DNA from: a virus
Lineage: Duplodnaviria > Heunggongvirae > Uroviricota > Caudoviricetes
Strand: one strand, 5' to 3'
Length of the DNA: 28,857 nucleotides
Virus record (IMG/VR): IMGVR_UViG_2585427793_000015
Location: 1-28,857 of that record
The translations under genes were made by a program, and so were the position numbers. The notes beneath the pieces are model-generated. The model was given only the letters and a program-made list of their open reading frames with translations, did no database searches and was not told where the DNA came from. Below are positions 1 through 28,857 of the stretch, piece after piece. Each line of letters begins with the position of its first letter. Position 1 is the first letter of the stretch.

Positions 1-975
1 TCATTCGGACGTGACCACAGCAAAATGCAGTCCCGGGTGATTAATCAATAACGGTTCACGGGGTCTGCTGGCTGTCTGCAACTGCATACTGTTAACTGGT
101 ACGGGGGAGCGGGTCCTGTATCCCGTCTGCAACTGTGCGCTGTTCATGGTCATGGGGTCCGTTGTCGGCAGACCTGAGTGCAATTGCGCCCTGCTGAGTA
201 CCAGTGGTTCTGCCGTCGGACGGGCGGCATAAAAGTTAATCCGGTTAATTGTCAGCGGCTTACCTGTCAGTGCCGGAACAAGTGCAAAATGCAGCCCTGC
301 ACAGTTAACCGTTAACGGTTCTTCTGGTTTATATCCGGCCTGAATCTGTATGCGATTAACGGATAATGGCGGACCGGACACAGCCTCATCGTTACCATCG
401 GTGTAAAAAAACTCATACCCTGTTCCACCCATGCGGTAATTTTTCAGGAGACATTCCAGCTCGCGGGTGCGTCCGCTGATTAATGGTGTCATGACATCAT
501 CAACACAGGTAAAACGCCCGGCGTCGCTGTCCTGAACCTCCACTTTCAGCAGCCAGCGATACCGCGCCGGATGCAGCGGGTACATGCAGTCGCGCAGGCA
601 GTGATGCGGCAGAACGGCCGTCACCTTGATGGTGAAGCCCAGCGCCGCAGCAGCGGCTTCAATCTGCCAGGTTGCCAGCCCACCCTTGCGGCGGTATTTC
701 TCCACCACGGCACGACGGCGGGCTTCCGTTGTGGTGGCGGCAATTCCGCATTCCGGCAGCGCCAGATACTGCTCCCACTCCGGCAGCAGCTGGAGCATGG
801 TTTCCGGGCGCATCTCCACATGCAGACGCGAGGCGTCGTATTCAATGCGGGTTAAACGCGCTGCAAGCGCCCTTAAAAAACGGTTTAAATCCGCGTCGTT
901 ATCACGCGGCCATGCTTTACCCCGTGGCATGACCTGTTGCAGTGCGGTCAGCCATTCCGTCACGCTGTGAGCCAT
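1..975 (-). CDS. Baseplate/tail protein, Mu gp48 (R)-like, with C-terminal tandem-repeat extension
   Basis: 324-aa ORF ending at the window edge (stop = revcomp of 1-3); position directly after the baseplate J-like gene as in Mu; C-terminal ~120 aa is about 7 imperfect ~17-aa repeats (PLTVN...QLQ.G). Confidence 0.55.
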   Translation of the reverse strand: MAHSVTEWLTALQQVMPRGKAWPRDNDADLNRFLRALAARLTRIEYDASRLHVEMRPETMLQLLPEWEQYLALPECGIAATTTEARRRAVVEKYRRKGGLATWQIEAAAAALGFTIKVTAVLPHHCLRDCMYPLHPARYRWLLKVEVQDSDAGRFTCVDDVMTPLISGRTRELECLLKNYRMGGTGYEFFYTDGNDEAVSGPPLSVNRIQIQAGYKPEEPLTVNCAGLHFALVPALTGKPLTINRINFYAARPTAEPLVLSRAQLHSGLPTTDPMTMNSAQLQTGYRTRSPVPVNSMQLQTASRPREPLLINHPGLHFAVVTSE

Positions 976-2036
976 GTCACCTCCCCGATGGTGATAAGCT
1001 CATCCACATCACTGGTGGTGTCTTCCCCGATGTTGAGAAAGTAATCTGTAATGCCGGATGTCATACCGATGGTCGTGCGCAGCGAGGACACCGGCAGCAT
1101 CTGACCAGGGGCCAGCGTTTTCTGTAATGCTGTCAGGTTTGCCCGGACGGCGTTCCTGTTCGCCTGGCCGTCCGGTGTCAGACGGATGGACAGGTCGACT
1201 TTCTTCAGCCTGACCTGAACCGGCCAGACCTCAATGCCGCCCGGTTTGCCCACCATAACCCCAGTGGCCGGGTGTTTGTGGCAGAACAGATACTGCTCCA
1301 TTGTCTTCAGGTCTTTGCGGGTCGGTACAATATCTTCACGGTCATCGTAAAGCCATGCCAGTCCGACCGTGCCGGGGCCGTGCCACGCATCCCACGCCCA
1401 CGCGCGGCTGACGCCAGCCACTTCGCGAGCCCAGATGACGTAATCATGCAGAGCACCGCCCACCGGGGGATTGCGACGCACATACAGCAGACGGTCCAGC
1501 AGCTCCGCGATGGATTCAGTGTCTGCGCCACCGGTGATGCCACCTTCAGCCACCACGCCTGCACTGGCCGTTCCGGGCAGCGGAGATAACAGGGTCAGCA
1601 CGGCACCGGCAGCAAGATTACCCGCCACCCCGGCTTCTTCAGCCTGCACAATGACGGTGACCTCGCCGTCCCGTACCTCACCGGATGTGAGCACCTGGTA
1701 CACCTGATTCGTGTCGGACTGCATCCGTGTTTCAGCCGGAAGGAGAGACTGACTGGTGAAGGTCACCGGCCCGCTGGCAAAGGTGGCCTGTTTGCGGATA
1801 ACCCCTTCATACGTTGCTGTTTTGATAATGGTTTCATCATCAGACGTGGCGGACGGGATTATCTGGTCCTTAATCCAGCTCTGATGGTCGTATAAATCCC
1901 GGACCTGACTGCTGAATGACACGTTCAGCGCCTGCTCAACACTGACAGGCGGCAGCTTTTGCAGGCCGAGTTCATACGCAATATCTTTTTCGCCGTCGGC
2001 AATCAGTTTGCCCAGCGTGGGGATTTCATACGGCAT
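960..2036 (-). CDS. Baseplate J-like protein (Mu gp47/W analog)
   Basis: 358-aa ORF; size and synteny between gp46-like and gp48-like genes; overlaps both neighbours as in tightly packed tail operons. Confidence 0.7.
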   Translation of the reverse strand: MPYEIPTLGKLIADGEKDIAYELGLQKLPPVSVEQALNVSFSSQVRDLYDHQSWIKDQIIPSATSDDETIIKTATYEGVIRKQATFASGPVTFTSQSLLPAETRMQSDTNQVYQVLTSGEVRDGEVTVIVQAEEAGVAGNLAAGAVLTLLSPLPGTASAGVVAEGGITGGADTESIAELLDRLLYVRRNPPVGGALHDYVIWAREVAGVSRAWAWDAWHGPGTVGLAWLYDDREDIVPTRKDLKTMEQYLFCHKHPATGVMVGKPGGIEVWPVQVRLKKVDLSIRLTPDGQANRNAVRANLTALQKTLAPGQMLPVSSLRTTIGMTSGITDYFLNIGEDTTSDVDELITIGEVTWLTA

Positions 2037-2478
2037 TAATGGTGGCCTCCCATCGACGGGGGATTTCGATTGTGAGCGTGGTTTTGTCCGGGCGGGTTAA
2101 CACCACCTGAAAGGCAATACAGTCAGGGACGATGATTCTGGCCGTGACAGTGGCGTTACGGGCGTAACCGGCCCGCAGCAGCGGTTGCATGGACAGCCGT
2201 GCGTAATCTTCCACGCGCAGGCGGACATCTTCCGTCAGCTTTTCACGCTCAAGCAGCCACAGGCGGGAACCCCACGAAAAATCGCTGTATGTGTCGCCCG
2301 GCCAGCCACGCGGGTCGCCGGAACCATCAGGGATGACATCATCGTCATCAGCGCGGGCATCGGTGAAAAGGCAGATAAGAACCTGAGTGACCAGCCCCTC
2401 ATCCCGTGAGAGGCCGTTATGGGTGACGGTGATGTCACCCCGTGAGAGCATGTTATTCCAGCGGATTCCTGTCGTCAT
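2026..2478 (-). CDS. Baseplate protein, Mu gp46 (V)-like
   Basis: 150-aa ORF in the conserved position between baseplate spike and baseplate J genes; 4-bp overlap with the upstream gene. Confidence 0.6.
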   Translation of the reverse strand: MTTGIRWNNMLSRGDITVTHNGLSRDEGLVTQVLICLFTDARADDDDVIPDGSGDPRGWPGDTYSDFSWGSRLWLLEREKLTEDVRLRVEDYARLSMQPLLRAGYARNATVTARIIVPDCIAFQVVLTRPDKTTLTIEIPRRWEATINAV

Positions 2479-3011
2479 ACGGGCGGTGATGTCTTCTCAT
2501 TGTCGCCGTCCTTATGAATATGATTGCTGAAAGATTTACCGTTGATGGTGACATCTTCAGTAAATTCACAGGGACCGACGAATTTCATTTGTTTACCGAT
2601 AATATTCAGCAATTCGTCGGCGGTGAGATTTACCGTTTTCCCTGAAACGTCTAATTGTTCCCCTGTTATTTCAATAACGCCGTTTTCCTTCAGGGTAATG
2701 TGTGATTTTCCGTCCCGGTGATACAGCCGGACGTCGCCGGGGGACAGGTCTTTAGGGCGACATCGCTTGTCCTCCACTGCGATGGCAACCAGCCCGTCAC
2801 GCCGTCCGCCAACGGCCAGCACTATGGCTTCAGAACCTTCCGGCGGAACGGAAGTAAAACCGTAATTCTGGAAGCGTTCCACGTCGTCATCGGTGGCATC
2901 TGCCAGCGTCTGGATTTGCAGGTTCTGCCGCTCCAGACTGTCAGACACCATGCGGACAATGGCACGGTCAACCATCAGCCGCAGACGGCGGGTAATTGCG
3001 CTTAATCCCAT
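2475..3011 (-). CDS. Baseplate assembly protein V / spike (Mu gp45-like)
   Basis: 178-aa ORF; pattern typical of phage baseplate V proteins (LAVGGRRDGLVAI...; C-terminal GKSF..H.H); synteny. Confidence 0.7.
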   Translation of the reverse strand: MGLSAITRRLRLMVDRAIVRMVSDSLERQNLQIQTLADATDDDVERFQNYGFTSVPPEGSEAIVLAVGGRRDGLVAIAVEDKRCRPKDLSPGDVRLYHRDGKSHITLKENGVIEITGEQLDVSGKTVNLTADELLNIIGKQMKFVGPCEFTEDVTINGKSFSNHIHKDGDNEKTSPPV

Positions 3012-4075
3012 GTGACCACCGCTTTTGCTGATTTCTTCGTTTTCACTTTCATTTCCGGCATGTCCAGTGATTCAGGCGGAACCAGCGCCAGAACCGTTAT
3101 CCGCCCCTGTGCACCATCCGTCCAGGTCACCCCGGATATCAACCAGGTGGTTTTCAGGTTCTGAATACTGTCGTCGATATCAACAAGGCGGTTGGTCTGC
3201 CACAGCGGGCCGCTGTCGCCCTGTTCGCGCCAGCCTGCCACCGTGATTTCCGTCGTGCGGGCCTCTCCCAGCATCCGGGCTTTGAACCATTCCCCGCGAA
3301 TGCTGGCTCCACCCACGGTCAGACTGTCTTCATTGACCAGAATGCGCGGGCGGTAACGGTTAATTTCCGGGTCTTCGGTGATGTACTGGCGACCGCCCAC
3401 CATCGAGGCAGGCTGGCTGTCCCACAGTTTGCCACCGGCACTGGTGGTGCCCTTGATGATGTACTGACTGTTACGCTCCCGCCAGCTGAAGCGCCCACGG
3501 GCGGCGAGGATATTTTTTCCCAGCACCAGTGAGACACCTGCGCGAACGGAAGAGGCGCGGGTGATAATCAGGTTACCCCCTCCGTCAGACGTCAGCAGAA
3601 CGCCGCGCTGTTTTGCCAGCCGGTCGAGCAGTTCAAAGCCCGTTTCACCCTGTTCCAGAACGACAGACGCAAACGCCTCCCCGGTCGGGGTTTCCGTGAT
3701 GACGGTTATCCCGAACGGGCGGCAGACATCAGCCGCCACCTGTTCAAGCCGCACGCCTTTCCATTTCCCGGACGAATGCACCACAGAGCAGTCCACCAGG
3801 TCACCGGTTTTGTCGCGCCCCATGACGCGAATCTCCACGTTTTCTGCGTCATAGCTGGGAATAAAATCATCGATATACCCCGTCAGCACGGTATCCGCAC
3901 CCAGCCTGACCGTGCAGGGTTGCCCCTCACGAATCACGCGCGGTGCCGCCGCTGACCAGCGGGTTGTCACACTGAGATCAAACTCACCGGCAATCGCCTT
4001 CAGGGAACGACTGACGGACATTTCCGTCCAGCCTTCCCACAATTTGCCGTCAACGGTAAGAATCACGGAGCCCAT
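3002..4075 (-). CDS. Baseplate hub / late tail protein (Mu gp44 P, P2 gpD-like)
   Basis: 357-aa ORF between the N-like and baseplate V genes; size and synteny. Confidence 0.65.
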   Translation of the reverse strand: MGSVILTVDGKLWEGWTEMSVSRSLKAIAGEFDLSVTTRWSAAAPRVIREGQPCTVRLGADTVLTGYIDDFIPSYDAENVEIRVMGRDKTGDLVDCSVVHSSGKWKGVRLEQVAADVCRPFGITVITETPTGEAFASVVLEQGETGFELLDRLAKQRGVLLTSDGGGNLIITRASSVRAGVSLVLGKNILAARGRFSWRERNSQYIIKGTTSAGGKLWDSQPASMVGGRQYITEDPEINRYRPRILVNEDSLTVGGASIRGEWFKARMLGEARTTEITVAGWREQGDSGPLWQTNRLVDIDDSIQNLKTTWLISGVTWTDGAQGRITVLALVPPESLDMPEMKVKTKKSAKAVVTWD

Positions 4076-5349
4076 CAGTCGGTAATCTCCACAGGTTGCG
4101 TTGGCAGTATGAATGACGGATGGCGCAGGCGGTTACGCTGCACGATTTCATCCCGTCGGCTGGTGTCACCATGCTCGCGCCATGCCAGCAATGCGGCAGA
4201 TGTGGTTGTGGTCAGCGTCACCTGCCGGGTTTCCGGCAGACGGGCGGCACGCTCGCGGGCATCCGTAATCACGGCCTGCCGTAAATCACGCAGCGTTCGC
4301 CACAATGCCCGCTGGTTATTTTCCACCGCCGCGACCGCCTGCTCATGCAGTTCAGCCGCCAGCGCGTCACCGGCAGATAATGCCGCATCACTGGTATCGA
4401 ACGTCATCGAGGCCACGGCACTGGCCTGTCCCAGCAGGGTTTCCAGCACAACCACCTGGCGGAAGTCGTCAATGTTCTTCTGCAGGCTGTCAGATACCGG
4501 CTGATAATCCGCTGACAGCCCGATGGCAAAGCCGATTTCACCGTCTGCCACGCTGCCGGGCTTCACGGTGATATCTTCCGGCAGTGCGCCAGTGGCAACC
4601 TGTCGGGCGCGCTCTCCGGCCCACTGGTTGCGTAATGTCGTGTAAACCGCCAGTGCTTCGGGTGATTCCGTCACCAGATCAACCACGCCGTCAATGAGCG
4701 AGGACAGCTCACTGACCAGACGACCCGGCGTGGCAATAATGGTTCCGGCCATCTCCTTAAAATGGTTCAGCCTGTCCATCCACTGATTCAGTGCCGTCGG
4801 TAACGTGGGCAGGTTGGCCACAAGGTTTTCCATATCGGCCAGAAAGCTGTCGGCCATCTCACCCAGCCCGTCAGGTGCACCGAACCAGTTGCCATCGTCA
4901 ATGGCCGCTTTTACCGCATCAATGCCCGTCAGCACTTCCTGCTGCGTGTTATCCGCCGCAGACGGGAACAGACGCTCGCCTGCCTCAAACACTTCAAATG
5001 TGACATACGCAATGCCGTCTTCCTCCGTGCTGAGGCGATGGGTGACCTTGCCAACCTGTACGGTCTGTATCCCGAACCACGGATGGATAAGCTCGCCGGG
5101 GCCGGGGGGATTGAGCGCATCTAAAAGGGCGTTTAAATCAGCCTGGAAGTTGCTACCCAACAGCTTCGCGTTAATCTGCTGTTGCCCCGGAACGGCCCCG
5201 TTATCATCCGTCCAGGCGGTTTCACGCCGGGGATAAGCACGGGGAATGGCACGACGGCCACCTGTGCCTTCCGTATCCACCAGAAAAAAAGGGACACCGC
5301 GAAACGAGGCGTCGCGCAGCCCGTCCCATTTGCCTTTGCTTGTTGTCAT
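4075..5349 (-). CDS. DNA circularization protein N-like (Mu gp43)
   Basis: 424-aa ORF immediately downstream of the tape measure gene (1-nt overlap); size and position as Mu N. Confidence 0.6.
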   Translation of the reverse strand: MTTSKGKWDGLRDASFRGVPFFLVDTEGTGGRRAIPRAYPRRETAWTDDNGAVPGQQQINAKLLGSNFQADLNALLDALNPPGPGELIHPWFGIQTVQVGKVTHRLSTEEDGIAYVTFEVFEAGERLFPSAADNTQQEVLTGIDAVKAAIDDGNWFGAPDGLGEMADSFLADMENLVANLPTLPTALNQWMDRLNHFKEMAGTIIATPGRLVSELSSLIDGVVDLVTESPEALAVYTTLRNQWAGERARQVATGALPEDITVKPGSVADGEIGFAIGLSADYQPVSDSLQKNIDDFRQVVVLETLLGQASAVASMTFDTSDAALSAGDALAAELHEQAVAAVENNQRALWRTLRDLRQAVITDARERAARLPETRQVTLTTTTSAALLAWREHGDTSRRDEIVQRNRLRHPSFILPTQPVEITD

Positions 5350-7205
5350 TACCCTTGCTCCACGCTGGTGACGCCAGCCTGCGCACTGAGTCTGACGCCG
5401 GGTTGATCCACTCTGACGCTTTTCACGCGGGCGTCACCTTCCACCACCACACGGATTTCCCCCTGCAATTGCTGCGGAAGGAAAGGATAATTCTGTGTGG
5501 GTTGCATACCTGCCCACGGTCGCGGGTCGGCAATGTTCTTGTCACCCAGTGAATTGAACCAGTCTGTTACCTTACGCCAGACGGATTCCAGTGCTTTCTG
5601 GTTGTCCTGGCTTTGTTGCGCGAACTCGCGCTCCCACGGGCTGGCGTCAGTGGCACCGGCAACGGATTTAGTGAGCGTGTCAACCTCGCCCGGCAGGGCG
5701 TGTTGCGTGGTCAGAAAATCGTAAAATTCCAGACCAGCAGCAATGATGCCTGCACCTTTACCTGCCTTTCCTCCACGGTTCCCCGGACCTTGTGGATTGC
5801 GGGAGTTACGGGGATTGCGCGATGAATCCGGCGCATCCGGCAGACCACCGGTATTACCCTTCATCCCGCCACTGCCCATATTGACCACATAAACCGGCAT
5901 CACACCGGAGCCGAAAACATCCGTAATGCCGCCGGGTATCCCTTTGCCTTTCTCTTTGGGATTCATGATGTCGTGAATGGTTTTACCGAACTGGTACGTC
6001 TTTCTGATGGCGATAATGCCACCCAGCGCGATCGCCATATACTTACCGACCTGCAACCAGTTCTGGACAGTGTTCTGGTCCACGCTGTTGAGCGCATCAG
6101 CCAGTTCCTGAACGGGCTTTGCCAGTTGTCCTTCAGCAAAACGTTGCCATTCGTTATTCAGTGATTGCATTGCAGCATTAAAGCCTTCGGCATTGGTCTG
6201 TGCGGCCTTTTGCGTGGAACCCAGATCAATCGTGCCGTAAATCATTTGTTCCATCAGTTGCCGGTTTTCAGGGTTGAGCAGCGCCTTAATCCCCTGCATC
6301 CCGGTCAGATCAAACACATCCTGAAGTTTCAGCGGGTCGTATTTGGCCCGTTTAAGGATTTCCATCATCAGCTCATAGGGCTTTTTGATGTCTTTTGTGC
6401 CTTTGACAAAAACGTCAATGCCGTTTTTTTTCAGGAACTCAATGTTCTTTTTGTCCGACAGGGAGGCATACATGGCCTGAATACTGGTTACCGTCTCATC
6501 AATGCTGCCTTTGTTTTTGGCGAACACCTGAGCAAATGCCCCCATCTGGGCAATGGCTTCCGGTCCCTGATCCTGAATGATGGAAAACAGTTTCGGGGCA
6601 GCGCGGGCAACATCGGCAACGCTGACAGACCCCACTGCGAACTGCGAATACAGCCTGTCCATCATGTTATTGACCGCATCAGCACCCCGAACGTTTTTTT
6701 CCCAGAACTGGGCCATCAGCCCGGCTGCAACCTGTCCGTCAACACCGAACGCCTGCATCATCAACCCCATGTTGCGGAGGTTGTCCACCACATACTGATA
6801 ATCACCGGTTTTCCCCAGAAGTTCGCTGGCCCCCTGACCAAGCGCAGAGGCATCAATACGAATATCTTTCTGGTTCGATACATCCCTGATTTTGTCGTGA
6901 AGCGTCTTTACCTGTTCAGTGGTTAACTGGGCATCCGTACCCATCCGGCGCATCTGCGCATCAAAATCGGCAACCTGTTTGATAGTAAGACTACTGCCAA
7001 GCCCGGCTATCATTGCCGTGTAGCGGTTACCCAGCACGTCGAGGCCACGTGTGGCAGATTCCGTAGTGGCTTTAACAAGGCGCATAGCCTTCTGATGGTT
7101 CCGGGCGAACTGCGACATGTTTGCGCCGTATTGCCGGGCTTTGGCGGTCAGGTTCCCGGCAAGGTTGATCATGATTTCCGTGCTGAGACGGTTACCTGTT
7201 GCCAT
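5349..7205 (-). CDS. Tail tape measure protein
   Basis: 618-aa ORF, Ala/Gly/Gln-rich with predicted helical segments and a glycine-rich C-terminus (GSGGMKGNTGG); follows the tail chaperone gene. Confidence 0.75.
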   Translation of the reverse strand: MATGNRLSTEIMINLAGNLTAKARQYGANMSQFARNHQKAMRLVKATTESATRGLDVLGNRYTAMIAGLGSSLTIKQVADFDAQMRRMGTDAQLTTEQVKTLHDKIRDVSNQKDIRIDASALGQGASELLGKTGDYQYVVDNLRNMGLMMQAFGVDGQVAAGLMAQFWEKNVRGADAVNNMMDRLYSQFAVGSVSVADVARAAPKLFSIIQDQGPEAIAQMGAFAQVFAKNKGSIDETVTSIQAMYASLSDKKNIEFLKKNGIDVFVKGTKDIKKPYELMMEILKRAKYDPLKLQDVFDLTGMQGIKALLNPENRQLMEQMIYGTIDLGSTQKAAQTNAEGFNAAMQSLNNEWQRFAEGQLAKPVQELADALNSVDQNTVQNWLQVGKYMAIALGGIIAIRKTYQFGKTIHDIMNPKEKGKGIPGGITDVFGSGVMPVYVVNMGSGGMKGNTGGLPDAPDSSRNPRNSRNPQGPGNRGGKAGKGAGIIAAGLEFYDFLTTQHALPGEVDTLTKSVAGATDASPWEREFAQQSQDNQKALESVWRKVTDWFNSLGDKNIADPRPWAGMQPTQNYPFLPQQLQGEIRVVVEGDARVKSVRVDQPGVRLSAQAGVTSVEQG

Positions 7206-21141: not shown

Positions 21142-21170
21142 TGAAGCAGATTTAAACGTGGTCTGCTTCA
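21142..21170 (-). promoter_or_regulatory. Inverted repeat TGAAGCAGA-N11-TCTGCTTCA in the endolysin leader
   Basis: Perfect 9-bp arms, 12-40 nt upstream of the endolysin ATG. Confidence 0.4.
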
Positions 21171-21185
21171 TAGTGCCGGAGGCAT

Positions 21186-21209
21186 AAAAAAAGCCGGATT
21201 TACCGGCTT
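21186..21209 (-). promoter_or_regulatory. Conserved dyad element AAGCCGG-N5-CCGGCTT plus T7 run, copy 1 (upstream of the endolysin)
   Basis: Perfect 7-bp inverted repeat with a 5-nt loop, followed on the minus strand by TTTTTTT; centred ~70 bp upstream of the endolysin ATG. Either a Rho-independent terminator closing the early operon or an activator site of a late promoter, or both. Confidence 0.6.
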
Positions 21210-21229
21210 CATTGAATTAAAAAAGATGA

Positions 21230-21709
21230 CTACTCATCACCTTTGATGGAGCAATCTATCATCATATTTTTCCCCATAGGGAGAAACTTTGTCTGAATGT
21301 GAAAGCCCAGAATCTTATACGTTAGTCCGTAACCTTTAACTTTTGCTGCGGAAGCCACCATGTCAATAACTCGTTCCTGCTGTTCTTCAGTTAATTGACC
21401 AATTACAGATTCAACAACCCGCGAACATGCAGCAAAGGAGGGCAGAGCGCCTACAGGATTATCATCAAAATCTTTTACAGTCGTCGTTGAACTAACGACC
21501 TTATTATTAATCATAAACAATCCAAACTTGCTGTGAGCAGTTTCGGTTCCACCGTTCTTAATTGAATCGCCCCCTTTAAGAGGCTTCCAGCTATTTAGTG
21601 CAATGAGGTCTTTTTCGGCCAGGCGTTTTTTGATTACCTCTTCAGAGGGCAGCTTTGCCGCATTAGCGCAAAATACGCTCAGTAAAAACATAAGAGGAAA
21701 GTATTTCAT
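21230..21709 (-). CDS. Secreted/periplasmic hypothetical protein (moron; occupies the position of Mu C)
   Basis: 159-aa ORF with a classic signal peptide (MKYFPLMFLLSVFCANA/AKLP); visibly AT-rich; start overlaps the mor stop as ATGA. Confidence 0.6.
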   Translation of the reverse strand: MKYFPLMFLLSVFCANAAKLPSEEVIKKRLAEKDLIALNSWKPLKGGDSIKNGGTETAHSKFGLFMINNKVVSSTTTVKDFDDNPVGALPSFAACSRVVESVIGQLTEEQQERVIDMVASAAKVKGYGLTYKILGFHIQTKFLPMGKNMMIDCSIKGDE

Positions 21710-22116
21710 GGCTCATCCTTAAATAGTTGCATTTGATATTTTCCACGCTCCAGCCTTCGCATTCTTTTGATGGCCTGATATACCGTTTTGTAGGTCACTT
21801 TGTAACGCTGCACCAACTCTGCTACGTTTTTTCCATCAAAATCACGCCAGATGCGCATGTCTCTGATCAGATTTTCCAGTATTTTCCCTTTCGGAACATA
21901 TACCTGAATCCCTCCGATATGATTGCAAATTGCCACTACCAGCTCAAGAGAGTGGGCAGGGTTAACACCAAGCCTTATCAGTTCCTGTCGCAGCAGAGCA
22001 TTCAGCTCTGAAAGTAGCGCCGGGTAAACATATTTTTCCTGATAATCGTGAAGATATTCCAGAACACTGTCGTCCCGGAAGTCTTCGAATAAATCCTGCT
22101 CTTTCATCTGTTTCAT
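21706..22116 (-). CDS. mor: Mor/C-family transcriptional activator
   Basis: 136-aa ORF with a C-terminal Mor/C-type HTH region (GGIQVYVPKG...IRDMRIWRDFDGKNVAELVQRYKVTYKTVYQAIKRM); ATGA-coupled to the gemA-like gene as in Mu. Confidence 0.8.
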   Translation of the reverse strand: MKQMKEQDLFEDFRDDSVLEYLHDYQEKYVYPALLSELNALLRQELIRLGVNPAHSLELVVAICNHIGGIQVYVPKGKILENLIRDMRIWRDFDGKNVAELVQRYKVTYKTVYQAIKRMRRLERGKYQMQLFKDEP

Positions 22117-22664
22117 ACAGCAATTCTCCCGCTGTTTCGTGCGCGGGCATACGCACTGGTCAGTGCATCATAGCCGCGCAGCTCCCGCCCGGTTTCGCTC
22201 ACAGGTAAAGGCACACCATGTCGGGCAAAGGCGTCCCGGATGCAGCGCATATGCCACTGTTTGAGCGTTTCGAGCACAACCTGCAACGATTCCCCGTGAC
22301 ACCAGGCCAGAGTGGAAACACCCTGACCGCCATTACGTCTGGCCGTCAGGCGTTCAACGTATTTGTCCAGCGCGGCGTCGCTGATATCGGAAACGAAACC
22401 ATCAAGAAACATCTGCTGCCAGATTTTGTAAATCTTCTCGCGTGGTGTGACATGCCCCTTAAAGCGACGGCGGGGATGTTTTTTCTGCTTCTTAAAACCG
22501 CGCTCTTTCATGGCATCGAGCACCTGTTCCAGTTGTGCGACGGACAGTTCGCGGCAACTGGTTTTGCCTGTGCACTGCACCAGAAAGGCGCGGTAAGTGT
22601 CATCGTCGAGTTGTAGATCACGCCGGGCGACATGAATTAATTTAATCAGGGATGTGCGACTCAT
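22113..22664 (-). CDS. gemA: GemA-like regulatory protein (Mu gp16 family)
   Basis: 183-aa ORF with N-terminal LIKLIHVARRDLQLDDDTYRAFL, typical of Mu gp16/GemA-like proteins; immediately upstream of mor. Confidence 0.7.
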   Translation of the reverse strand: MSRTSLIKLIHVARRDLQLDDDTYRAFLVQCTGKTSCRELSVAQLEQVLDAMKERGFKKQKKHPRRRFKGHVTPREKIYKIWQQMFLDGFVSDISDAALDKYVERLTARRNGGQGVSTLAWCHGESLQVVLETLKQWHMRCIRDAFARHGVPLPVSETGRELRGYDALTSAYARARNSGRIAV

Positions 22665-23064
22665 TTTGCCCCATCTCCTTCATGCAGTGTTTTTCCACCC
22701 ATGCCACACGACCAAGATTCAGGTGACACCTTTCAAACCTGCACTCTTCCTTGTAGTGCGCGCTGTCCTCATTGAAAGGCAATAATTCATCCAGTCCGTT
22801 CGCGATAAAATCTGTGCGCAATTGTTCTGCTGCATCTTCGCCGTATGCTCCGATGGATTCGAAATAACTATAAGCATTGCTACATAATCCAAAATACCGG
22901 ACAAATAATTCCCCCTCTGTTTCTGGTGCACCATTTTTTAACCACTGGTTATAGGCGACATAAAAATCATAAAGATGTTTTCTGGTAGTGACAGATGTGG
23001 ATTGAATTTCATTTTTCTCTGCGTTATTCATTTCGTAATACCTCTTCGCAATAAAAGATTTCAC
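22642..23064 (-). CDS. Hypothetical protein (AT-rich accessory gene)
   Basis: 140-aa ORF, visibly AT-rich, Tyr/Phe/Cys-containing; no recognisable motif. Confidence 0.5.
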   Translation of the reverse strand: MKSFIAKRYYEMNNAEKNEIQSTSVTTRKHLYDFYVAYNQWLKNGAPETEGELFVRYFGLCSNAYSYFESIGAYGEDAAEQLRTDFIANGLDELLPFNEDSAHYKEECRFERCHLNLGRVAWVEKHCMKEMGQNESHIPD

Positions 23065-23360
23065 TGGATGCCAACCGCTACCGGAGCCGGTGAATAATCA
23101 AGAATGAGATAGCGCAGGACGTGGTCGGTGATATTCCAGCCACTGGAGCCACAAATAAAACGTCCCAGCCGGATATCGATATACGCCATCACAAAACGGG
23201 GCATTCCCTGTTTGCACATCTCGTCGCCCACTTCTGCAACGATGTAAACCGACTCGCAGGTCAGTACGCCTGTCGCAAATTCTTTTGCCAGTGCCGGAAT
23301 AGCATTGCCTTCCAGCCAGGGCAAAGAGCGGCGGAACGCGCCATTGAGCATCATCAACAT
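23061..23360 (-). CDS. Hypothetical protein, possibly the C-terminal part of a frameshifted gene
   Basis: 99-aa ORF, ATGA-coupled to the downstream gene; frame stays open upstream to a stop at 23388-23390; see the overlapping 23098..23589 ORF. Confidence 0.4.
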   Translation of the reverse strand: MLMMLNGAFRRSLPWLEGNAIPALAKEFATGVLTCESVYIVAEVGDEMCKQGMPRFVMAYIDIRLGRFICGSSGWNITDHVLRYLILDYSPAPVAVGIQ

Positions 23361-23589
23361 CGGGATGTTCCGTTGTTGCGTTTCGTCTTACTGGCGGCGT
23401 CGGACGAGGGCGCGGAACGTCATAAAATCCGTTGCATTCTGTCAGCATTCCGGCATCAACCGCATCACGCAGGAAATACACCATTGACGAGGGAGGCATC
23501 TTCATTTTTTCAGCCAGAACGCCACAGGTCAGACGCCCGTAAGCCCGTAGTAATGTGCTGACACCGTTCAGAATTTTTGCATCAATCAT
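23098..23589 (-). CDS. ORF with a plausible N-terminal winged-helix-like domain (about 58 aa), then an Arg/Pro-rich tail that looks out of frame
   Basis: 163-aa ORF; residues 1-58 look like a real DNA-binding domain, the rest is low-complexity and overlaps the 99-aa ORF in another frame. Likely frameshift, pseudogene or sequencing error near 23390-23420. Confidence 0.3.
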   Translation of the reverse strand: MIDAKILNGVSTLLRAYGRLTCGVLAEKMKMPPSSMVYFLRDAVDAGMLTECNGFYDVPRPRPTPPVRRNATTEHPDVDDAQWRVPPLFALAGRQCYSGTGKRICDRRTDLRVGLHRCRSGRRDVQTGNAPFCDGVYRYPAGTFYLWLQWLEYHRPRPALSHS

Positions 23590-23687: not shown

Positions 23688-24212
23688 TTAAATACCGGCT
23701 TCCTGTTCAAATGGAATAATAGAAAAATCTTCAATGCCCGATTTAACTGTAATTCCGGCAACACCTGCGACCGCTTTCGGCTCCAGTAAAATCGCCTCCT
23801 TGTTGATTTCCTGTTTCGTGCGAATAAAACGTTGCAGGCCAAGACGCTCCAGCGTTTCCATTACCGCATCCACACCGCGAATACTTACTGATGGTGGGCG
23901 CTGACGCCATGACACATCACCGGTGACCAGGTTTGCCGTCTTCACCTTGCCGCCGTTCGTCAGTTCGTCACGGTTCGCTTCACACCATCCCTGAATGCCT
24001 TTTGAAAGGGTTTCAATACTGGTTTTAAGTGGCGCAATCTGTGAGGCGTATTTTTCTGTAATCTCGGCGATAGCGTCATTCATTTCCGTTTCAAGTCGTG
24101 CTGCTTCGCGTTGCAGGTCACCAATCCGGCGGATATCACATACCACGGCATCTCGGGATTGCGGAACATAAGTCGCTGCGGCGTTCCTGATTCGTTTTGC
24201 TGACTTAGCCAT
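23688..24212 (-). CDS. gam: Host-nuclease inhibitor Gam (Mu Gam / Ku-like)
   Basis: 174-aa ORF, the length of Mu Gam, with conserved-looking blocks (VPQSRDAVV.DIRRIGDLQREA.RLETEMNDAIAEITEK...GWCEANRDELTNGGKVKTANLVTGDVSWR); CAGGAGC ribosome-binding site upstream of the ATG. Confidence 0.9.
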   Translation of the reverse strand: MAKSAKRIRNAAATYVPQSRDAVVCDIRRIGDLQREAARLETEMNDAIAEITEKYASQIAPLKTSIETLSKGIQGWCEANRDELTNGGKVKTANLVTGDVSWRQRPPSVSIRGVDAVMETLERLGLQRFIRTKQEINKEAILLEPKAVAGVAGITVKSGIEDFSIIPFEQEAGI

Positions 24213-24232: not shown

Positions 24233-24532
24233 TTAATATTCGCTGTATACAATACTGGATACAGCACGATTGCTTAATTCCATCTTTTGGGCAATGACAT
24301 GAATAGCCAGCCCTTCTTTATAAAGTTCACGACACAAATATTTGTCGCGCTCACTGATTTTGTATACACACAACGATATTCCGTACCTTCTGGCATGTGC
24401 CCGGAGAGCGGTTGTGGCAACGTTCAGTTTTTTCGCCATTTCCTCGACGGTCATTTTCCCGACACTGGCTTCGATAAATTCCCGGTCTTCGCGTGACCAG
24501 CGTTTACGATTGCACTTCATTCCGGTCACCAC
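24233..24532 (-). CDS. Small DNA-binding protein with two HTH-like segments (second one Mor/C-like)
   Basis: 99-aa ORF; MTVEEMAKKLNVATTALRAHARRYG and ERDKYLCRELYKEGLAIHVIAQKMELSNRAVSSIV, the latter loosely matching the RD..I...(F/Y)..G....(L/V)A...Y.(L/V)(S/T)...(I/V) pattern of the Mor/C C-terminus. Confidence 0.5.
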   Translation of the reverse strand: MVTGMKCNRKRWSREDREFIEASVGKMTVEEMAKKLNVATTALRAHARRYGISLCVYKISERDKYLCRELYKEGLAIHVIAQKMELSNRAVSSIVYSEY

Positions 24533-24952
24533 TCAGTACAACAGGGGGGCGCGCAGTGATGCCGGAATATGCCGCAGCGATAACTGAACCGCTTTCAGGG
24601 CAAGGGAAGAATACGTCCCCTGCGTCCAGCCATTCGCCATTCGCCGGTAATCGCGCCAGATGTTCTGCCACTGCTCCCGTGCGTCCGGGTCTGACGCGCT
24701 GATGTATTCGCGGTCCATGACGTATTCCCATAAATCCACATTGAAAGCATTGCCAAACGTAATGGCGCGGAATACCGCCTCTCCGCAATAACGCGCACAA
24801 ATGCTGTAATGGTCAAATGCAATCAGGTAAGTCTTTTCGCCATACCCCTCAACTTCGCGCGCGCAAATAAACTCGCGTAAGTCTCCGCCATTGTTATTAC
24901 GCATTTTGATTCGAATTAATGCCTGGATTTCGTTTCTGATTCTGGCGTTCAT
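24533..24952 (-). CDS. Hypothetical protein (early accessory region)
   Basis: 139-aa ORF with an AAAGGAA ribosome-binding site ~9 nt upstream of the ATG; abuts the downstream HTH gene with no gap. Confidence 0.5.
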   Translation of the reverse strand: MNARIRNEIQALIRIKMRNNNGGDLREFICAREVEGYGEKTYLIAFDHYSICARYCGEAVFRAITFGNAFNVDLWEYVMDREYISASDPDAREQWQNIWRDYRRMANGWTQGTYSSLALKAVQLSLRHIPASLRAPLLY

Positions 24953-24981: not shown

Positions 24982-25230
24982 TTAAACTGTCGTTGTTGTG
25001 ACACTGCCACCCGTGATGACGCCGTCATTTTTCAGAATTTCAATGGCCTCATGGGTTGACTCGCAAACAATATCCCGACTTTTTTCCAGAACCAGTAACG
25101 CTACCATGCCAGCGAGTGTACCTTTATCGCCGTCCAGCTCTGCACTGTGTTCTACGTTAATACTGGTACGTAAACGCTGCCCTTTAACTTCAGATGTCGC
25201 ATTTTTGATTTCGATAATGACTTTTGCCAT
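24982..25230 (-). CDS. Hypothetical protein (early accessory region)
   Basis: Start trimmed to Met19 (MAKVIIEIKN), preceded by GAGGAA 7 nt upstream; ~82 aa. Confidence 0.5.
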   Translation of the reverse strand: MAKVIIEIKNATSEVKGQRLRTSINVEHSAELDGDKGTLAGMVALLVLEKSRDIVCESTHEAIEILKNDGVITGGSVTTTTV

Positions 25231-25262
25231 TTTGTTATTCCTCACAAATAAATAAGCCGTTA

Positions 25263-25490
25263 TTAACGCCAGATAATCTGGCAACCATTAAGGCGGGCCG
25301 TCCATACGGAACGGGCAACCCCTGATTTATGCTCCATAATCCTGACAGCGTTTCTGACCAGCTCCGGTGGTGGGCAGGTAATTTCAAGCACCGGACGGGC
25401 CACGCCGAGATATGATTCATTTACGTGACTCCCGTGCGCCTGTAACCAGTTCTGCGCATCCGTTGCCATTTTTATATTTCGTGACATCAT
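25263..25490 (-). CDS. Small hypothetical protein directly after B (position of Mu kil)
   Basis: 75-aa ORF with an AAAGGA ribosome-binding site; positional analogy only, no sequence motif recognised. Confidence 0.4.
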
Positions 25491-25505: not shown

Positions 25506-26456
25506 CTACCAGTTCAGTAATTTAGGGTTGCTGTAAGCCTCCTTAAAAGCCGCCTTAATGTGACTTTTATTCAGGGATGAACCGGCACCTTTCGCCGCCA
25601 GCCACGCATGATTCAGTGTGTGAGTCAATACACGCAATCCCCCGGGCTTTTCGGCTACCCTCATCAGCAGGTCCAGCTCATCTTCCTGTGTTACTCCCCA
25701 TGCTTTGGCTACAGCCATCACATCAGTCTTTTTCACTTTGCGCAGTTGTTTTGTCATGGCAAAACGGCTGAACAGACGGGCCAGTTCATCAGTCCCACGA
25801 CGGGTGGCATCCGCCATCTGTTTCGGGTTGCCAATTAAAACCATCCCCACGCCAGTGGCATCCTGAATGGCGCGTAATTGCTCCAGACCATCCACACTTA
25901 AGTGATCAGCTTCATCAATAATCAGCAGGGGGTTAACACGTCCACTGGTTTCTTTTCCACCGCCCAGTTTTCTGCGAATGGCGCGGGTTATATTCCCCTT
26001 ATTTCTTCCCGGATTATTAATTTCCAGCGCATATGCTACTTCAAGGAGGCATTCCGTTACGCTCGAATGTGCCGGAGCAAGAGTCACCATCCAGGCATTA
26101 GCTGTTTTGCGGCAATATTCCCGGGCAGCAAAGGTTTTTCCGACACCCGGTACGCCAACAACGACACTGATAATCCCGAGTGAGCGCACTGTTTTAAACA
26201 GCTCATGCAAATCACAAAATGTCTGGGTCTTCACAACGCCGGGGGCACCTGACAAATTCTGCCCTTTCTGCCATACCCGATACCATTCCTGTAATTTGTC
26301 ATACATGCCTTCAACATTGCCTCTGTACTTTCCTTTGCGAAGATCAGAGAGAGTTGCCGGAGACATTCCGGCTTCATCAGCAATATCTTCCTGAGACTTG
26401 TCGCCCTCGTTAATCAAAGCGTTAATAGTGTTGAAAACATCATCAATATCAGTCAT
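25506..26456 (-). CDS. B: DNA transposition ATPase B (MuB-like, AAA+)
   Basis: 316-aa ORF with an N-terminal HTH region, Walker A (GVPGVGKT) and Walker B (LLIIDEADHL); GGAGG ribosome-binding site 8 nt upstream; follows the transposase gene. Confidence 0.9.
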   Translation of the reverse strand: MTDIDDVFNTINALINEGDKSQEDIADEAGMSPATLSDLRKGKYRGNVEGMYDKLQEWYRVWQKGQNLSGAPGVVKTQTFCDLHELFKTVRSLGIISVVVGVPGVGKTFAAREYCRKTANAWMVTLAPAHSSVTECLLEVAYALEINNPGRNKGNITRAIRRKLGGGKETSGRVNPLLIIDEADHLSVDGLEQLRAIQDATGVGMVLIGNPKQMADATRRGTDELARLFSRFAMTKQLRKVKKTDVMAVAKAWGVTQEDELDLLMRVAEKPGGLRVLTHTLNHAWLAAKGAGSSLNKSHIKAAFKEAYSNPKLLNW

Positions 26457-26530: not shown

Positions 26531-28618
26531 TCAGGCCAGCGGATCATCTTCTTCCTGCATGGCAAAAAGTTTTTGCATCCCCAGCCTGAAATCGCGTTCA
26601 AATTCTTCGTCATGCTCTTCTTCATATTCCGGTTGCTGAACTGCCACCACATTACCAACCGGGCGATAAACATTATCCAGCCAGGGTTCGGCCTGTTTGT
26701 GTTCCAGAATCTGAATACCTTCATCTTCAGCATCACGAATTTTTTCCTCAGCACGTTTGCGCATTCCTTTAATACGCTGCTGCTGTTTGTGATATTCCGC
26801 ACTGACAGGGAAGGCTGCGCGTTTATTCCCGTTCCATATCGCCTCACAGATAAAGCTGTCGTCCTTACGTCGTACCGTAATTCGCTCGGCATCGTGAATG
26901 TCATAGCTGATAAGTACCTTACGGCCATGTTCATCACGCAGCTCTGGCGCGTAGTAAATATTGTTCAGCCACTGGATTTCGCAGCGTCTTACCGGACGCT
27001 CCACCATCGGGCGGAACATGTCGCGCAGCTCAAGATCACTCAGCCACTCAATTTCAGTGTCTTCTTCCGCTAAGCGTTTTTTTCTGAACTCTGCCGGGCT
27101 GTAATGCCGCCCGTTCGGTTTCATCGGCAGCTCAGAATGCGGGCGGTTGTTGTACCATTCCACGCCTTCACGAATAGCCTCGATAAGTTCCGCCCACGAT
27201 GGCAGCTCGCGCATTGCCGCTTTCTGGCGGTCGTTCAGTGGCTTGTCCTGTTGCAGGGTGTTAAACGCTGAACGCAGATCACGGTTAAGTACACGCAACG
27301 ATTCCCGGTCAGCACCTTTGCCAAAATAGGTGCGATACCTCCTGGCTATACGCATCGGCAGCGTCCGGTTCAGGCGTTCAATAATGCCGCGCCCCTGTGG
27401 ATTACCGGCAATACCGGTAGGGTGTTTAATCCCCAGACGGGGCAGAATCCCTACGACCTCTTTGTCCAGCATGTCAGCCGTTTCACCAGAACCGTTATCC
27501 GAGTAATACAGAAACGGTTTTCCGTGGTTGCGAATGCCATGCCGTATCGCTCCGGCAACAGCGAACACGTTCTCGGCAAGATCAAGACTCCAGCCAACCA
27601 CAAACCGGGTTCCACCGTCGATCACAAACGTGACTTCTGGTGAGAATGGACGTCCGTGGATCGGATGCGCACATTTCAGCTTCATACCGTGACCGTCACC
27701 AATCCAGACATAATTCACTGGCATAACTGTCCAGTCGCGGCGGGGGAACCCTTCAAGCTGACGGGATTCACTGCCGGTAACGCGTCCTTTTTGTTTCACC
27801 ACTTCCGGCAATTTCTTCATGGCATAACGAACCACATCGTAAGAAGGCATCACCTCCAGCATGTACGGTTCGTCTGCATGGCGACACTGCCATTCCGCGA
27901 CAAAATCCTCGTAGGCTTCTGACATAGGTCTGCCGTTAGCCTGGCGATACTGCGCCAGAAACTCAGGCAGCCAGCTGATTTCCTCGACTTTCACTTCGTC
28001 GCGTTTACCAGGTGCCAGTAACAGCAACCTTTCAGCGGCGTTTTGTGCTTTGTTAAATTCAGCTACCCAACGTTTGAGCGTAATTGCGCTCAGTGTTCGC
28101 TCTTTCCCTTTACGGGCATTAGCAGTAATGGCCAAAGATTCCAGACGTTCTTCCAGGTTACCCTGCGCTAACCGAGACACAATAAAACGTATAGCGCTGG
28201 CACAACTGAATCCCGGCTCCTGGCTGATTCGCAGAACTTCACAGACAAGAGCAATGCGCGCTTCTGCAACTTTACGTTGATTTTCCGTAAGCGCATTCAG
28301 ACGCTCTTCTACCAGTTGTGGCGAACCGCGATATGCCTCAACAGGCTGTACAACATTTTGTTTGCGTTCACGCTTTACAGGAGGCTGGGTAGTTATCTCC
28401 TGCGGTGCGGTTGCCATCAGTTGAGCTACATGGCGCTCACGTAACGCCCGCTGTGTAACCGGAGGGAGGCAGTCGATGCTGTATTCAATGGTTTTTGAAC
28501 CCGCACGTTTGCGCCTGAAATGCTCAGATGAGGCCAGTTTCCTTATGGAATACCGCACCCCTTGCGCAGTTCCCGGCATACCTGGTAGCCCTACAAGCTC
28601 ATTAACTGACACAAACAT
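26531..28618 (-). CDS. A: DDE transposase, MuA-like
   Basis: 695-aa ORF with an N-terminal DNA-binding region (LPGMPGTAQGVRYSIRKLA) and a central catalytic region; AAGGTGG ribosome-binding site; immediately downstream of ner. Confidence 0.9.
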   Translation of the reverse strand: MFVSVNELVGLPGMPGTAQGVRYSIRKLASSEHFRRKRAGSKTIEYSIDCLPPVTQRALRERHVAQLMATAPQEITTQPPVKRERKQNVVQPVEAYRGSPQLVEERLNALTENQRKVAEARIALVCEVLRISQEPGFSCASAIRFIVSRLAQGNLEERLESLAITANARKGKERTLSAITLKRWVAEFNKAQNAAERLLLLAPGKRDEVKVEEISWLPEFLAQYRQANGRPMSEAYEDFVAEWQCRHADEPYMLEVMPSYDVVRYAMKKLPEVVKQKGRVTGSESRQLEGFPRRDWTVMPVNYVWIGDGHGMKLKCAHPIHGRPFSPEVTFVIDGGTRFVVGWSLDLAENVFAVAGAIRHGIRNHGKPFLYYSDNGSGETADMLDKEVVGILPRLGIKHPTGIAGNPQGRGIIERLNRTLPMRIARRYRTYFGKGADRESLRVLNRDLRSAFNTLQQDKPLNDRQKAAMRELPSWAELIEAIREGVEWYNNRPHSELPMKPNGRHYSPAEFRKKRLAEEDTEIEWLSDLELRDMFRPMVERPVRRCEIQWLNNIYYAPELRDEHGRKVLISYDIHDAERITVRRKDDSFICEAIWNGNKRAAFPVSAEYHKQQQRIKGMRKRAEEKIRDAEDEGIQILEHKQAEPWLDNVYRPVGNVVAVQQPEYEEEHDEEFERDFRLGMQKLFAMQEEDDPLA

Positions 28619-28620
28619 TT

Positions 28621-28857
28621 TTATGCCACCTTACGAGCGTAACGGCTGGGCCAGATCTCCTCCGGCGCAACACCAATAGCATCAGCAATAATGCGCTCAT
28701 ATTTGGGGCATTTGCGGTACAGGGCATTCTTTAACGAATCCTGGTTTAAACCGGCTTCAATGGACAGAGCGCGTAAAGTAAAACCTTTTACATGCACCGC
28801 CGCGACAACATGCGCGGGGTGCCAGTCCTGCTTAACAACTTCATTTATAGACATCAT
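28621..28857 (-). CDS. ner: Ner-like DNA-binding regulator
   Basis: 78-aa ORF with Ner-family motifs (DWHPA.V.AA...G.TLRALS...G....L.NAL.R..PK.E.IIA.A.GV.PEEIWPSRY); start codon sits at the window edge. Confidence 0.8.
   Translation of the reverse strand: MMSINEVVKQDWHPAHVVAAVHVKGFTLRALSIEAGLNQDSLKNALYRKCPKYERIIADAIGVAPEEIWPSRYARKVA

Follow-up and report, generated by a model that had tools for sequence, protein, structure and literature searches.

Mu-like prophages of Escherichia coli have been known for decades. One paper lists as known scars of this group of phages 5 bp (Mu) and 6 bp (B3), and reports TA-TA ends in Leptospira prophages (PMC8705779). Two cultured Mu-like Yersinia phages, vB_YpM_5 and vB_YpM_6, have been described (PMC10434027), and Sp18 is a Mu-like prophage of E. 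coli O157:H7 Sakai (PMC2669165, PMC7430833). Here we describe the virus record IMGVR_UViG_2585427793_000015 of IMG/VR, positions 1 to 28,857; this whole stretch of 28,857 nucleotides is called the window below. With a probability of about 92%, the window represents the middle 85% of a ~34.07-kb temperate transposable myovirus prophage of E. coli, read from right to left. The myovirus morphology is predicted from the genes. The prophage is already auto-annotated in RefSeq.

All long open reading frames (ORFs) of the window (100%) are on the minus strand in a single tightly packed array. The window edges are exact gene boundaries: the ATG of ner is at 28857, and the stop codon of a gp48-like gene is at 1. 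Compared with all Mu proteins by BLASTP, the window proteins give matches in collinear order. A preliminary description of the window had proposed synteny colinear with Mu on the minus strand, and every gene named there is backed by Pfam, PHROG and NCBIfam scans. The homology of A, B, Gam and Mor, which remained to be checked, is significant for all four. This homology and the transposon-type ends described below support the reading of the element as Mu-like and transposable. The transposase gene and its neighbor are as follows.

26531..28618, minus strand: A, DDE transposase of 695 aa (Mu-transpos_C 4.6e-18, HTH_Tnp_Mu_1 1.6e-6, weak rve)
25506..26456, minus strand: B, AAA+ target-DNA activator (Phage-MuB_C 2.9e-23, AAA_22 3e-17)

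The MuB-type AAA+ partner gene adjoins A. The N-terminus of A matches the MuA I-alpha domain 1TNS in a phmmer search against PDB, which returned only this domain and retroviral integrase cores, and no MuA catalytic-core structures. D308 and D374 of A align with D269 and D336 of MuA, and E414 corresponds to the catalytic Glu of integrases; with these three residues the MuA-type DDE triad is intact. Overall, the identity of A is 25% with MuA, rising to 77% with the A of the Sp18 type and 92% with that of vB_YpM_5. For B, identity is 41% with MuB and 58% with the B of the Sp18 type.

Megablast of the window against 5,426 complete E. coli genomes found the first 25 kb of the window in 132 genomes, and at least 80% of it is covered in 46. 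The best match is E300082 (99.8%), which contains a complete 34,068-bp element splitting mhpA. TD225-C4 contains a complete copy with 99.4% identity, splitting rlmB. The window differs from the E300082 copy by 59 substitutions, a replaced segment of ~411 bp (19908-20318), and a 2-bp deletion near 23342. The preliminary description had placed a repressor gene upstream of ner, the left end just past 28857, and the right end before position 1. The near-identical complete copies agree with all of these placements. A divergent 194-aa helix-turn-helix (HTH) repressor-like gene starts 140 bp past ner, the attL terminus is ~958 bp beyond the window, and tail fibres, com, mom and attR are within ~4.27 kb before position 1. 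In E300082, the series before position 1 consists of a 352-aa ORF and a tail fibre gene, followed by one for fibre assembly and a truncated fibre pseudogene; com and mom come last, next to the right end. An invertible segment had been suggested with reserve, next to the tail fibre. The tail fibre was found and the invertible segment was not: tblastn with Mu Gin found no invertase or G segment in the E300082 copy, and no recombinase is annotated in either complete copy. In the E300082 copy, mom and com are 96.7% and 72.6% identical to those of Mu, corresponding to a Mu-type Com/Mom module at the right end. Upstream of com, the GATC cluster is kept and the Mu C-binding segment differs (L001 8660-8800). 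The altered C-binding segment fits an element without C.

Ten E. coli genomes contain both end sequences of this type, and all twenty junctions were read. They represent ten independent insertions at ten differing sites, mostly splitting genes. In the orientation of the window, the element ends are 5'-TAAAGCGCGCAAAATCATTTGATAC ... GTATCAAAT(G/A)ATTTACCTCT(T/C)(C/T)ATA-3'. Read in the direction of Mu, the element has the termini 5'-TATGAAGAGG...GCGCGCTTTA-3', which were found in more than 12 contexts. Nine of the ten insertions, each at its own site, lie between exact direct repeats of 4 bp:

E300082: mhpA, duplication TGCC
TD225-C4: rlmB, duplication TATC
RM8082: epimerase gene, duplication TTCG
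S6: ydcV-patD spacer, duplication TTAA
1290: ydcO, duplication TCAC
WS1933D: glpT, duplication GGCT
FDAARGOS_943: sslE, duplication AACA
JCKP02: mscM, duplication CTTA
12A: kinase gene, duplication CGCG

Here the expectation taken from Mu did not hold. The termini are 5'-TA...TA-3' instead of 5'-TG...CA-3', and the target duplication is exactly 4 bp in 9/9 duplicated insertions, instead of 5 bp. In six of the nine, a 5-bp duplication is excluded because the base preceding the repeat differs between the two sides. Duplications of 5 bp with asymmetric ends (ATGCC in E300082 and ATATC in TD225-C4) were also considered, and were ruled out by the eight further insertions. The reconstructed empty mhpA site is identical to intact genomes at 179/179 bases. 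A Mu-type control prophage (O166:H15) gave TG...CA ends and the 5-bp repeat ATCTG in the same analysis. The same termini as in the window type are seen in one IMG/VR contig and in the cultured vB_YpM_5 record, where ~85 bp of unrelated DNA lies between attR and attL; this foreign DNA is the only hint of host DNA on virion ends. A metagenome scan for the attL end gave no matches.

The sequence TTTGATAC occurs 8 times in the 49-kb locus, versus 1.2 expected by chance. Six of these copies are within ~170 bp of the element ends, three per end, all pointing inward. The end repeats have the L1-L3/R1-R3 arrangement of Mu with another recognition sequence, and are putative transposase sites. In the Sp18 type, the attR end TATAGCG... 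is fixed in 16/16 independent junctions, which indicates that the duplication at yegX is also 4 bp, CGCG. No report of a 4-bp duplication in a Mu-like phage was found in the searchable literature, where absence is not proof of novelty. The SuMu and PluMu papers contain no end data.

These broad features are those of a transposable phage: a DDE transposase, a MuB partner, insertion at many sites with duplication, end repeats, and no annotated integrase. The element is a transposable phage, yet its ends and duplication length are unlike those of Mu. Duplication length and terminal dinucleotide track the transposase type among recombining Mu-like phages, being 4 bp with TA here versus 5 bp with TG-CA in Mu. 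Pipelines that delimit transposable prophages by a 5- or 6-bp scar would misplace the ends of this lineage.

The second difference from Mu concerns transcription. According to Pfam and BLASTP, mor is the only gene of the Mor/C family in the whole element, and no C homolog was found in the window or the complete copy. This gene content points to a cascade other than the canonical three tiers of Mu with separate Mor and C. An exact 25-nt repeat, GAAGCCGGTAAATCCGGCTTTTTTT, is present in two copies, versus 0 expected by chance. The regions concerned are as follows.

21706..22116, minus strand: mor (Pfam Mor 6.7e-30; 60% identity to Mu Mor, 32% to Mu C)
21162..21215, minus strand: Pm-like element 1, with a putative Mor site AATGA-AGCCGG-TAAAT, a hairpin and T-run at 21186-21210, and the -10-like sequence CACTAT
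13586..13750, minus strand: F-I intergenic region with Pm-like element 2, with a putative Mor site AGTGA-AGCCGG-TAAAT, a hairpin and T-run at 13610-13634, and the -10-like sequence CATACT

The first copy of the repeat directly follows the end of the early genes and leaves 56 nt to the endolysin gene, and Pm-like element 1 is read as a putative early-operon terminator and lysis-operon promoter. The second copy comes directly after F, 50 nt before the protease gene I. With two substitutions, the same sequence is seen in Mu at 9177-9195, immediately past mor. The GenBank annotation of Mu has a "middle promoter, activated by Mor" at 9163-9233 and a predicted terminator at 9179-9200. In the published Mor site, a G/C-rich hexamer separates two inverted repeats of 5 bp, and the centre is at -43.5 (PMC4390567); AGTAA-AGCCGG-TTAAT of Mu fits this form. 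The -10-like hexamers CATACT and CACTAT are at the same distance past the T-run as TATCCT of Mu. The 7-5-7 dyad AAGCCGG-N5-CCGGCTT was considered as the Mor site and rejected, since the published site is 5-6-5 (PMC4390567); this dyad is the terminator hairpin. The overlapping ARTGA-AGCCGG-TAAAT fits a Mor site better than the dyad.

These elements have the traits of terminators. A perfect 8-bp G+C-rich hairpin is followed by seven T, each copy is placed right after a stop codon, and TransTermHP labels the Mu counterpart as a terminator. The arms of the putative Mor site are also less symmetric than those of Mu. If the 25-nt elements were intrinsic terminators only, the late genes would be transcribed through another activator (e.g., the TraR/DksA-like protein) or by read-through. 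This is rather unlikely, because the conservation with Mu passes the hairpin on both sides, with CA(G/A)T(G/A)A upstream and the -10-like hexamer exactly 10 nt past the T-run, as in Mu Pm. Besides, both copies are at the positions of Mu Plys and PI, and no C homolog is available for C-type promoters. We infer that each 25-nt element closes one operon and opens the next, and that the Mor homolog may directly activate both the lysis/packaging operon and the head/tail operon. In Mu, Mor is inactive on late promoters, and C is inactive on Pm (PMC4287176). As Mu keeps the promoter targets of Mor and C separate, late operons driven by Mor would be a simpler, two-tier cascade. The reuse of Pm-type promoters before late operons suggests a route by which the Mu cascade could lose or gain its C tier.

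The F-I gap (13561-13750) is near the middle of the 34-kb element, ~0.9 kb off its centre, at the position of the strong gyrase site in Mu. It contains three GTTTT(T)GAAGG repeats upstream of Pm-like element 2, and a weak match, GGTATT...CCCGTTTT, to the gyrase-site region of Mu. Its position and this weak similarity suggest that the gap might include a strong gyrase site.

It can be speculated that the E. coli lineage defined by this transposase, to which the window type and vB_YpM_5 and probably also Sp18 belong, represents a naturally occurring variant of the Mu transposition machine, which joins TA-3' instead of CA-3' ends to target phosphates 4 bp apart and has a two-tier late programme without C. 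We regard this as tentative, somewhat short of an even chance. Neither the TA-3'/4-bp joining nor the C-less two-tier programme was found described in the searchable literature.

Several points weigh against the window being part of a transposable prophage of this kind. Both ends are outside the window, and were read in copies 99.4-99.8% identical to it. By the canonical definition of Mu, TA...TA termini and a duplication of 4 bp are deviations. One of the ten insertions, in FDAARGOS_1059, has intact ends and no target duplication. Its flanks (NZ_CP066032.1, ~4019221 and ~4056424) are a truncated short-chain dehydrogenase/reductase (SDR) oxidoreductase gene on one side and a truncated ATP-binding cassette (ABC) permease gene on the other. 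This pattern is the signature of a deletion or inversion that rearranged the chromosome at the prophage once it had inserted. No cultured phage carries this late module, the best portal match being 71% identical. Inducibility of the window copy is presumed from its homology with Mu. Finally, one early gene of the window copy is frameshifted, with its Mu counterpart in the semi-essential region:

23061..23589, minus strand: gp11 homolog, in two ORFs through a 2-bp deletion near 23342 (halves 86-90% identical to Mu gp11)

At the deletion, E300082 has GCGC[AC]CATTG and the window has GCGCCATTG, with "AC" missing. The gene is intact in E300082 (a 176-aa ORF) and in TD225-C4. Either the mutation is genuine and inactivates a dispensable early gene, or the frameshift comes from an error in sequencing.

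The window could thus be read as part of a defective, grounded remnant, formerly transposable and now chromosomal cargo that yields no phage. The broken gp11 homolog would fit such a remnant, as would the truncated tail-fibre pseudogene and the lack of an invertase in the complete copies, and a late module seen in no cultured phage. This reading is unlikely. A, B, mor, and the genes for terminase, portal, protease, capsid, sheath, tube, tape measure and baseplate are all full-length ORFs, and gp11 is part of the dispensable region of Mu. Copies with 99.4-99.8% identity at differing loci, mhpA and rlmB, indicate recent movement. Mu-type head and tail genes also occur in non-transposing elements, and the window by itself is without ends, but an integrase-type temperate phage, tailocin or gene-transfer-agent-like cluster with Mu-like structural genes, an alternative for which the preliminary description had named integrase-type att sites as the sign, is extremely improbable and already refuted by the junctions, given the transposon-type ends, ten differing chromosomal sites (nine with target duplications), the presence of A, B, Ner, Gam and Mor, and no integrase in the window or the complete copies.

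The other early genes of the transposable prophage are as follows.

28621..28857, minus strand: ner, early negative regulator, first gene of the early operon (Pfam HTH_35 1.8e-25)
25263..25490, minus strand: kil homolog (92% identity to Mu Kil)
24982..25284, minus strand: gp7 homolog (74% identity to Mu gp7)
24533..24952, minus strand: gp8 homolog (83% identity to Mu gp8)
24233..24532, minus strand: gp9 homolog, small HTH protein (90% identity to Mu gp9; Pfam HTH matches only weak)
23688..24212, minus strand: gam, binds DNA ends and inhibits host nucleases (Phage_Mu_Gam 1.3e-43; 90% identity to Mu Gam)
22642..23064, minus strand: ORF of 140 aa replacing Mu gp12-gp15 (phrog_6418 and phrog_2510, neither with an assigned function)
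22113..22664, minus strand: gemA homolog (Pfam GemA 9e-33; 80% identity to Mu GemA)
21230..21709, minus strand: 159-aa protein with an N-terminal signal peptide, last gene of the early operon (phrog_38744, no function assigned)

Ner is 47% identical to Mu Ner and 98.7% to the Ner of vB_YpM_5. The true start of the gp7 homolog is probably internal, at ~25230; the PGAP annotation of the E300082 copy gives this gene 249 nt. The ORF at 22642..23064 has no Mu match by BLASTP and no match in NCBIfam or PADLOC.

The 159-aa gene overlaps mor by 4 nt and is translationally coupled to it. Its G+C content is 41.5%. The protein starts with MKYFPLMFLLSVFCANA|AKLP, a signal peptide of typical form. A homolog search among 5.8e9 proteins found only 6 clusters. 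The slot of this gene is constant, between mor and the GH108 endolysin of this late module, with any transposase type; an ortholog is in the same slot in prophage L025, which carries a true Mu-type A. NCBIfam and PADLOC gave no match indicating a function. The AlphaFold (AF2) model is poor, with a mean predicted local distance difference test (pLDDT) score of 57, and a Foldseek search against PDB returned nothing with E < 0.01. This ORF was considered as the missing C activator, which is ruled out by the signal peptide and the lack of HTH or Mor-family similarity. As a speculation, the protein might act in superinfection exclusion or lysis control.

The lysis and packaging genes are as follows.

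20534..21130, minus strand: endolysin, GH108 with a peptidoglycan-binding domain (Glyco_hydro_108 1.8e-23, PG_binding_3 2.8e-17)
20281..20532, minus strand: gp18 homolog (69% identity to Mu gp18; Pfam Phage_Mu_gp18 on the L025 ortholog)
19896..20258, minus strand: holin-like gene, three transmembrane (TM) segments (three hydrophobic segments; phrog_12596)
19300..19908, minus strand: 202-aa lysis-cassette protein with a coiled coil and one C-terminal TM segment (weak GTA_holin_3TM 0.0019; phrog_1544)
19076..19303, minus strand: TraR/DksA-type zinc-finger protein (zf-dskA_traR 1.9e-10)
18786..19091, minus strand: gp25 homolog, one TM segment (DUF2730 1.3e-30; 27% identity to Mu gp25)
18493..18786, minus strand: gp26 homolog (61% identity to Mu gp26)
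18203..18490, minus strand: 95-aa ORF (phrog_8988, no function assigned; no Mu match by BLASTP)
17632..18213, minus strand: gp27 homolog, small terminase subunit (Phage_Mu_Gp27 6e-54; 47% identity to Mu gp27)
16100..17635, minus strand: gp28 homolog, large terminase subunit (Terminase_6N 6e-8; 50% identity to Mu gp28)

The GH108 endolysin replaces Mu gp22, to which it has no match by BLASTP. It is a soluble enzyme with no hydrophobic segment, hence with neither a TM nor a signal-arrest-release (SAR) sequence. The gp18 homolog comes after the endolysin, a departure from strict collinearity with Mu. The ~411 bp at 19908-20318 do not align with E300082 or TD225-C4, which are otherwise 99.4-99.8% identical, and the holin-like gene is a differing allele acquired by replacement inside the lysis cassette. 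The TraR/DksA-type gene is located within the late operon.

The head and tail genes are as follows.

14532..16103, minus strand: portal, gp29 homolog (Portal_Mu 8.8e-105; 31% identity to Mu gp29)
13751..14596, minus strand: F (gp30), head morphogenesis, shorter than that of Mu (Phage_Mu_F 6e-15; 35% identity to Mu gp30)
12598..13560, minus strand: I, head protease/scaffold (Mu-like_Pro 5.8e-45; 27% identity to Mu I)
11696..12598, minus strand: T, major head protein (Mu-like_gpT 4.4e-111; 37% identity to Mu T)
11306..11617, minus strand: 103-aa ORF at the position of gp35 (phrog_10420; assigned by position alone)
10869..11306, minus strand: gp36 homolog, head-tail adaptor (Phage_Mu_Gp36 4e-30; 32% identity to Mu gp36)
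10327..10872, minus strand: virion morphogenesis protein of the Mu G / P2 gpS family (Phage_tail_S 1.4e-14; position unlike Mu G)
9719..10330, minus strand: protein at the position of gp37 (phrog_490 3.7e-37; no BLASTP match to Mu gp37)
9535..9753, minus strand: gp38 homolog (DUF2635 1.1e-12)
8055..9599, minus strand: L, tail sheath (Phage_sheath_1 7e-31, Phage_sheath_1C; 41% identity to Mu L)
7689..8045, minus strand: M, tail tube (Tail_tube 5e-37; 28% identity to Mu M)
7292-7687, minus strand: gp41, tail-assembly chaperone (Gp41_Mu 1.2e-37)
5349..7205, minus strand: tape measure protein (phrog_973 "tail length tape measure" 6.6e-137; weak match to Mu gp42)
4075..5349, minus strand: N, DNA-circularisation/tail protein (DNA_circ_N 8e-27; 30% identity to Mu N)
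3002..4075, minus strand: P (gp44), baseplate hub (Gp44-like_2nd 2e-34, GpP-like_1st 2e-29; 38% identity to Mu P)
2475..3011, minus strand: gp45, baseplate spike/assembly (Phage_Mu_Gp45 1.7e-28; 39% identity to Mu gp45)
2026..2478, minus strand: gp46, baseplate wedge (Pfam GP46 6e-32; 41% identity to Mu gp46)
960..2036, minus strand: gp47, baseplate J-like (37% identity to Mu gp47, 1.6e-66)
1..975, minus strand: gp48-like baseplate wedge (phrog_203 9.6e-61 over aa 1-199; 31% identity to Mu gp48)

The G-like gene is between the gp36 and gp37 homologs, while Mu places G between F and I. RefSeq places a "tRNA-OTHER" in the interval from F to the G-like gene of an Sp18-type prophage (O157:H7 strain 7409; L007 26564-26644), and the window counterpart is without a tRNA. 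No tRNA or Rfam family was found within the window. An out-of-frame ORF at 7192-7401 overlaps the 3' part of the gp41 gene and reaches the start of the tape measure gene. Tail-assembly chaperone genes with a programmed frameshift usually overlap in this way, and the same may apply here. The gp48-like protein carries an extra C-terminal stretch of ~125 aa.

BLASTP against the Mu proteins found no homologs of Mu C, gp6 or gp12-15 in the window. Conversely, the window genes with no Mu counterpart are those for the 159-aa secreted protein and the 140-aa ORF, the variable holin-like gene, and the TraR/DksA-like gene. Identification of the element helps to tell its core genes from cargo. The G+C content differs by module: 57.5% in the late genes, 41-44% in mor and the next ORF, and 49-50% in the early region.

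The life cycle can be outlined as follows, with the regulatory cascade, packaging and lysis steps taken by homology with Mu. A repressor encoded just outside the window would keep the early operon silent. Upon induction, the early operon would be transcribed: ner, A, B, kil, gp7-9, gam, gp11, gemA, mor, and the small secreted protein. The DDE transposase A would bind the three repeats at each end and, with the AAA+ protein B, insert copies of the element at new sites in the chromosome. The only activator of the Mor family may then switch on the two Pm-type promoters, one for the lysis/packaging operon and the other for the operon of the head protease, capsid and tail. Mu-type heads with contractile tails would be filled by a headful terminase, and the particles would be released by the GH108 endolysin with its holin-like partner.

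Comparison with the known phages reveals that the window element is a mosaic, each module being closest to a differing relative: Mu, vB_YpM_5, Sp18, or Klebsiella phage Kp4866-3. The late module has its closest cultured relatives in Kp4866-3 and Vibrio phage Martha 12B12-like, whose portal proteins are 71% and 57% identical, respectively, and the former is the best cultured-phage match of the portal. DNA of Kp4866-3, an unannotated record, is 72% identical over window positions 9790-15887, and its A is 57% identical. Both phages are too distant to be the same phage as the window. The same late module, with 98.8% identity, is also seen in O166:H15 JNE21-009 (NZ_AP041814.1 1487890-1527737), joined to a true Mu-type c-ner-A-B. 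That prophage is inserted inside the tail-fibre gene of another prophage. Records LC727881 and LC727895 annotate Mu-like phages inserted in Shiga toxin (Stx) phages.

The Sp18 type shares with the window an A C-terminus of the same style, GATAC-type end repeats, a single Mor-family gene without C, and a late operon with TraR/DksA, DUF2730 and VpaChn25_0724 genes. Unlike the window lineage, its own attL end is TG-type (TGTAACC...). Its early accessory, lysis (lysozyme and Rz/Rz1) and structural genes differ in allele and size, and it has a recombinase and an invertible fibre region in ~38.7 kb. Insertions of the Sp18 type are present in about 220 E. coli genomes.

The repressor of vB_YpM_5 is 98.5% identical to that of the window lineage, its A is 95.8% identical over the first 661 residues, and its terminal sequences, ...GCGCGCTTTA and TATGAAGAGG..., are the same. 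Unlike the window element, its late genes are all Mu-sized, and an invertase is present. At its C-terminus, A of vB_YpM_5 matches MuA exactly over ~28 residues (MT374853.1, 7912-8023 versus window 26531-26640), and the B of this phage is Mu-type. Thus vB_YpM_5 combines modules in the opposite way from the window, with this c-ner-A and a Mu-type B and late genes. The A of the window ends like Sp18 A and is paired with an Sp18-like B. The recombination joint inside the 3' end of A keeps the A C-terminus matched to the type of B. In Mu, the C-terminus of MuA contacts B. Recombination joints in this way respect protein-protein interfaces, the type of the A C-terminus always matching B.

The resemblance to Mu itself is uneven. 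The kil, gp7-9, gam, gp11 and gemA homologs are 74-92% identical in protein and 85-88% in DNA, while identity is as low as 27-50% for the structural proteins and the repressor is unrelated to that of Mu. Mu and the window lineage have a similar attL spacer, and likeness extends to three end repeats on each side and the Pm-type promoter/terminator element; the end repeats themselves differ, being of the TTTGATAC type. Megablast aligns Mu, D108 and SfMu with window positions 22165-24979 only, ~10% of the query. The genus threshold of the International Committee on Taxonomy of Viruses (ICTV) is ~70% genome-wide nucleotide similarity, and by this measure the element would fall outside the genus Muvirus (Mu, D108, SfMu). 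In a narrow sense it is not Mu: the TG...CA ends, the 5-bp duplication, C, Gin and genome-wide DNA similarity are all lacking. The basic identification is routine, and specialists may be surprised only by the TA ends with their 4-bp duplication and by late promoters of the Pm type in an element without C. The element is a mosaic Mu-like transposable phage, a fresh member of a long-known kind.

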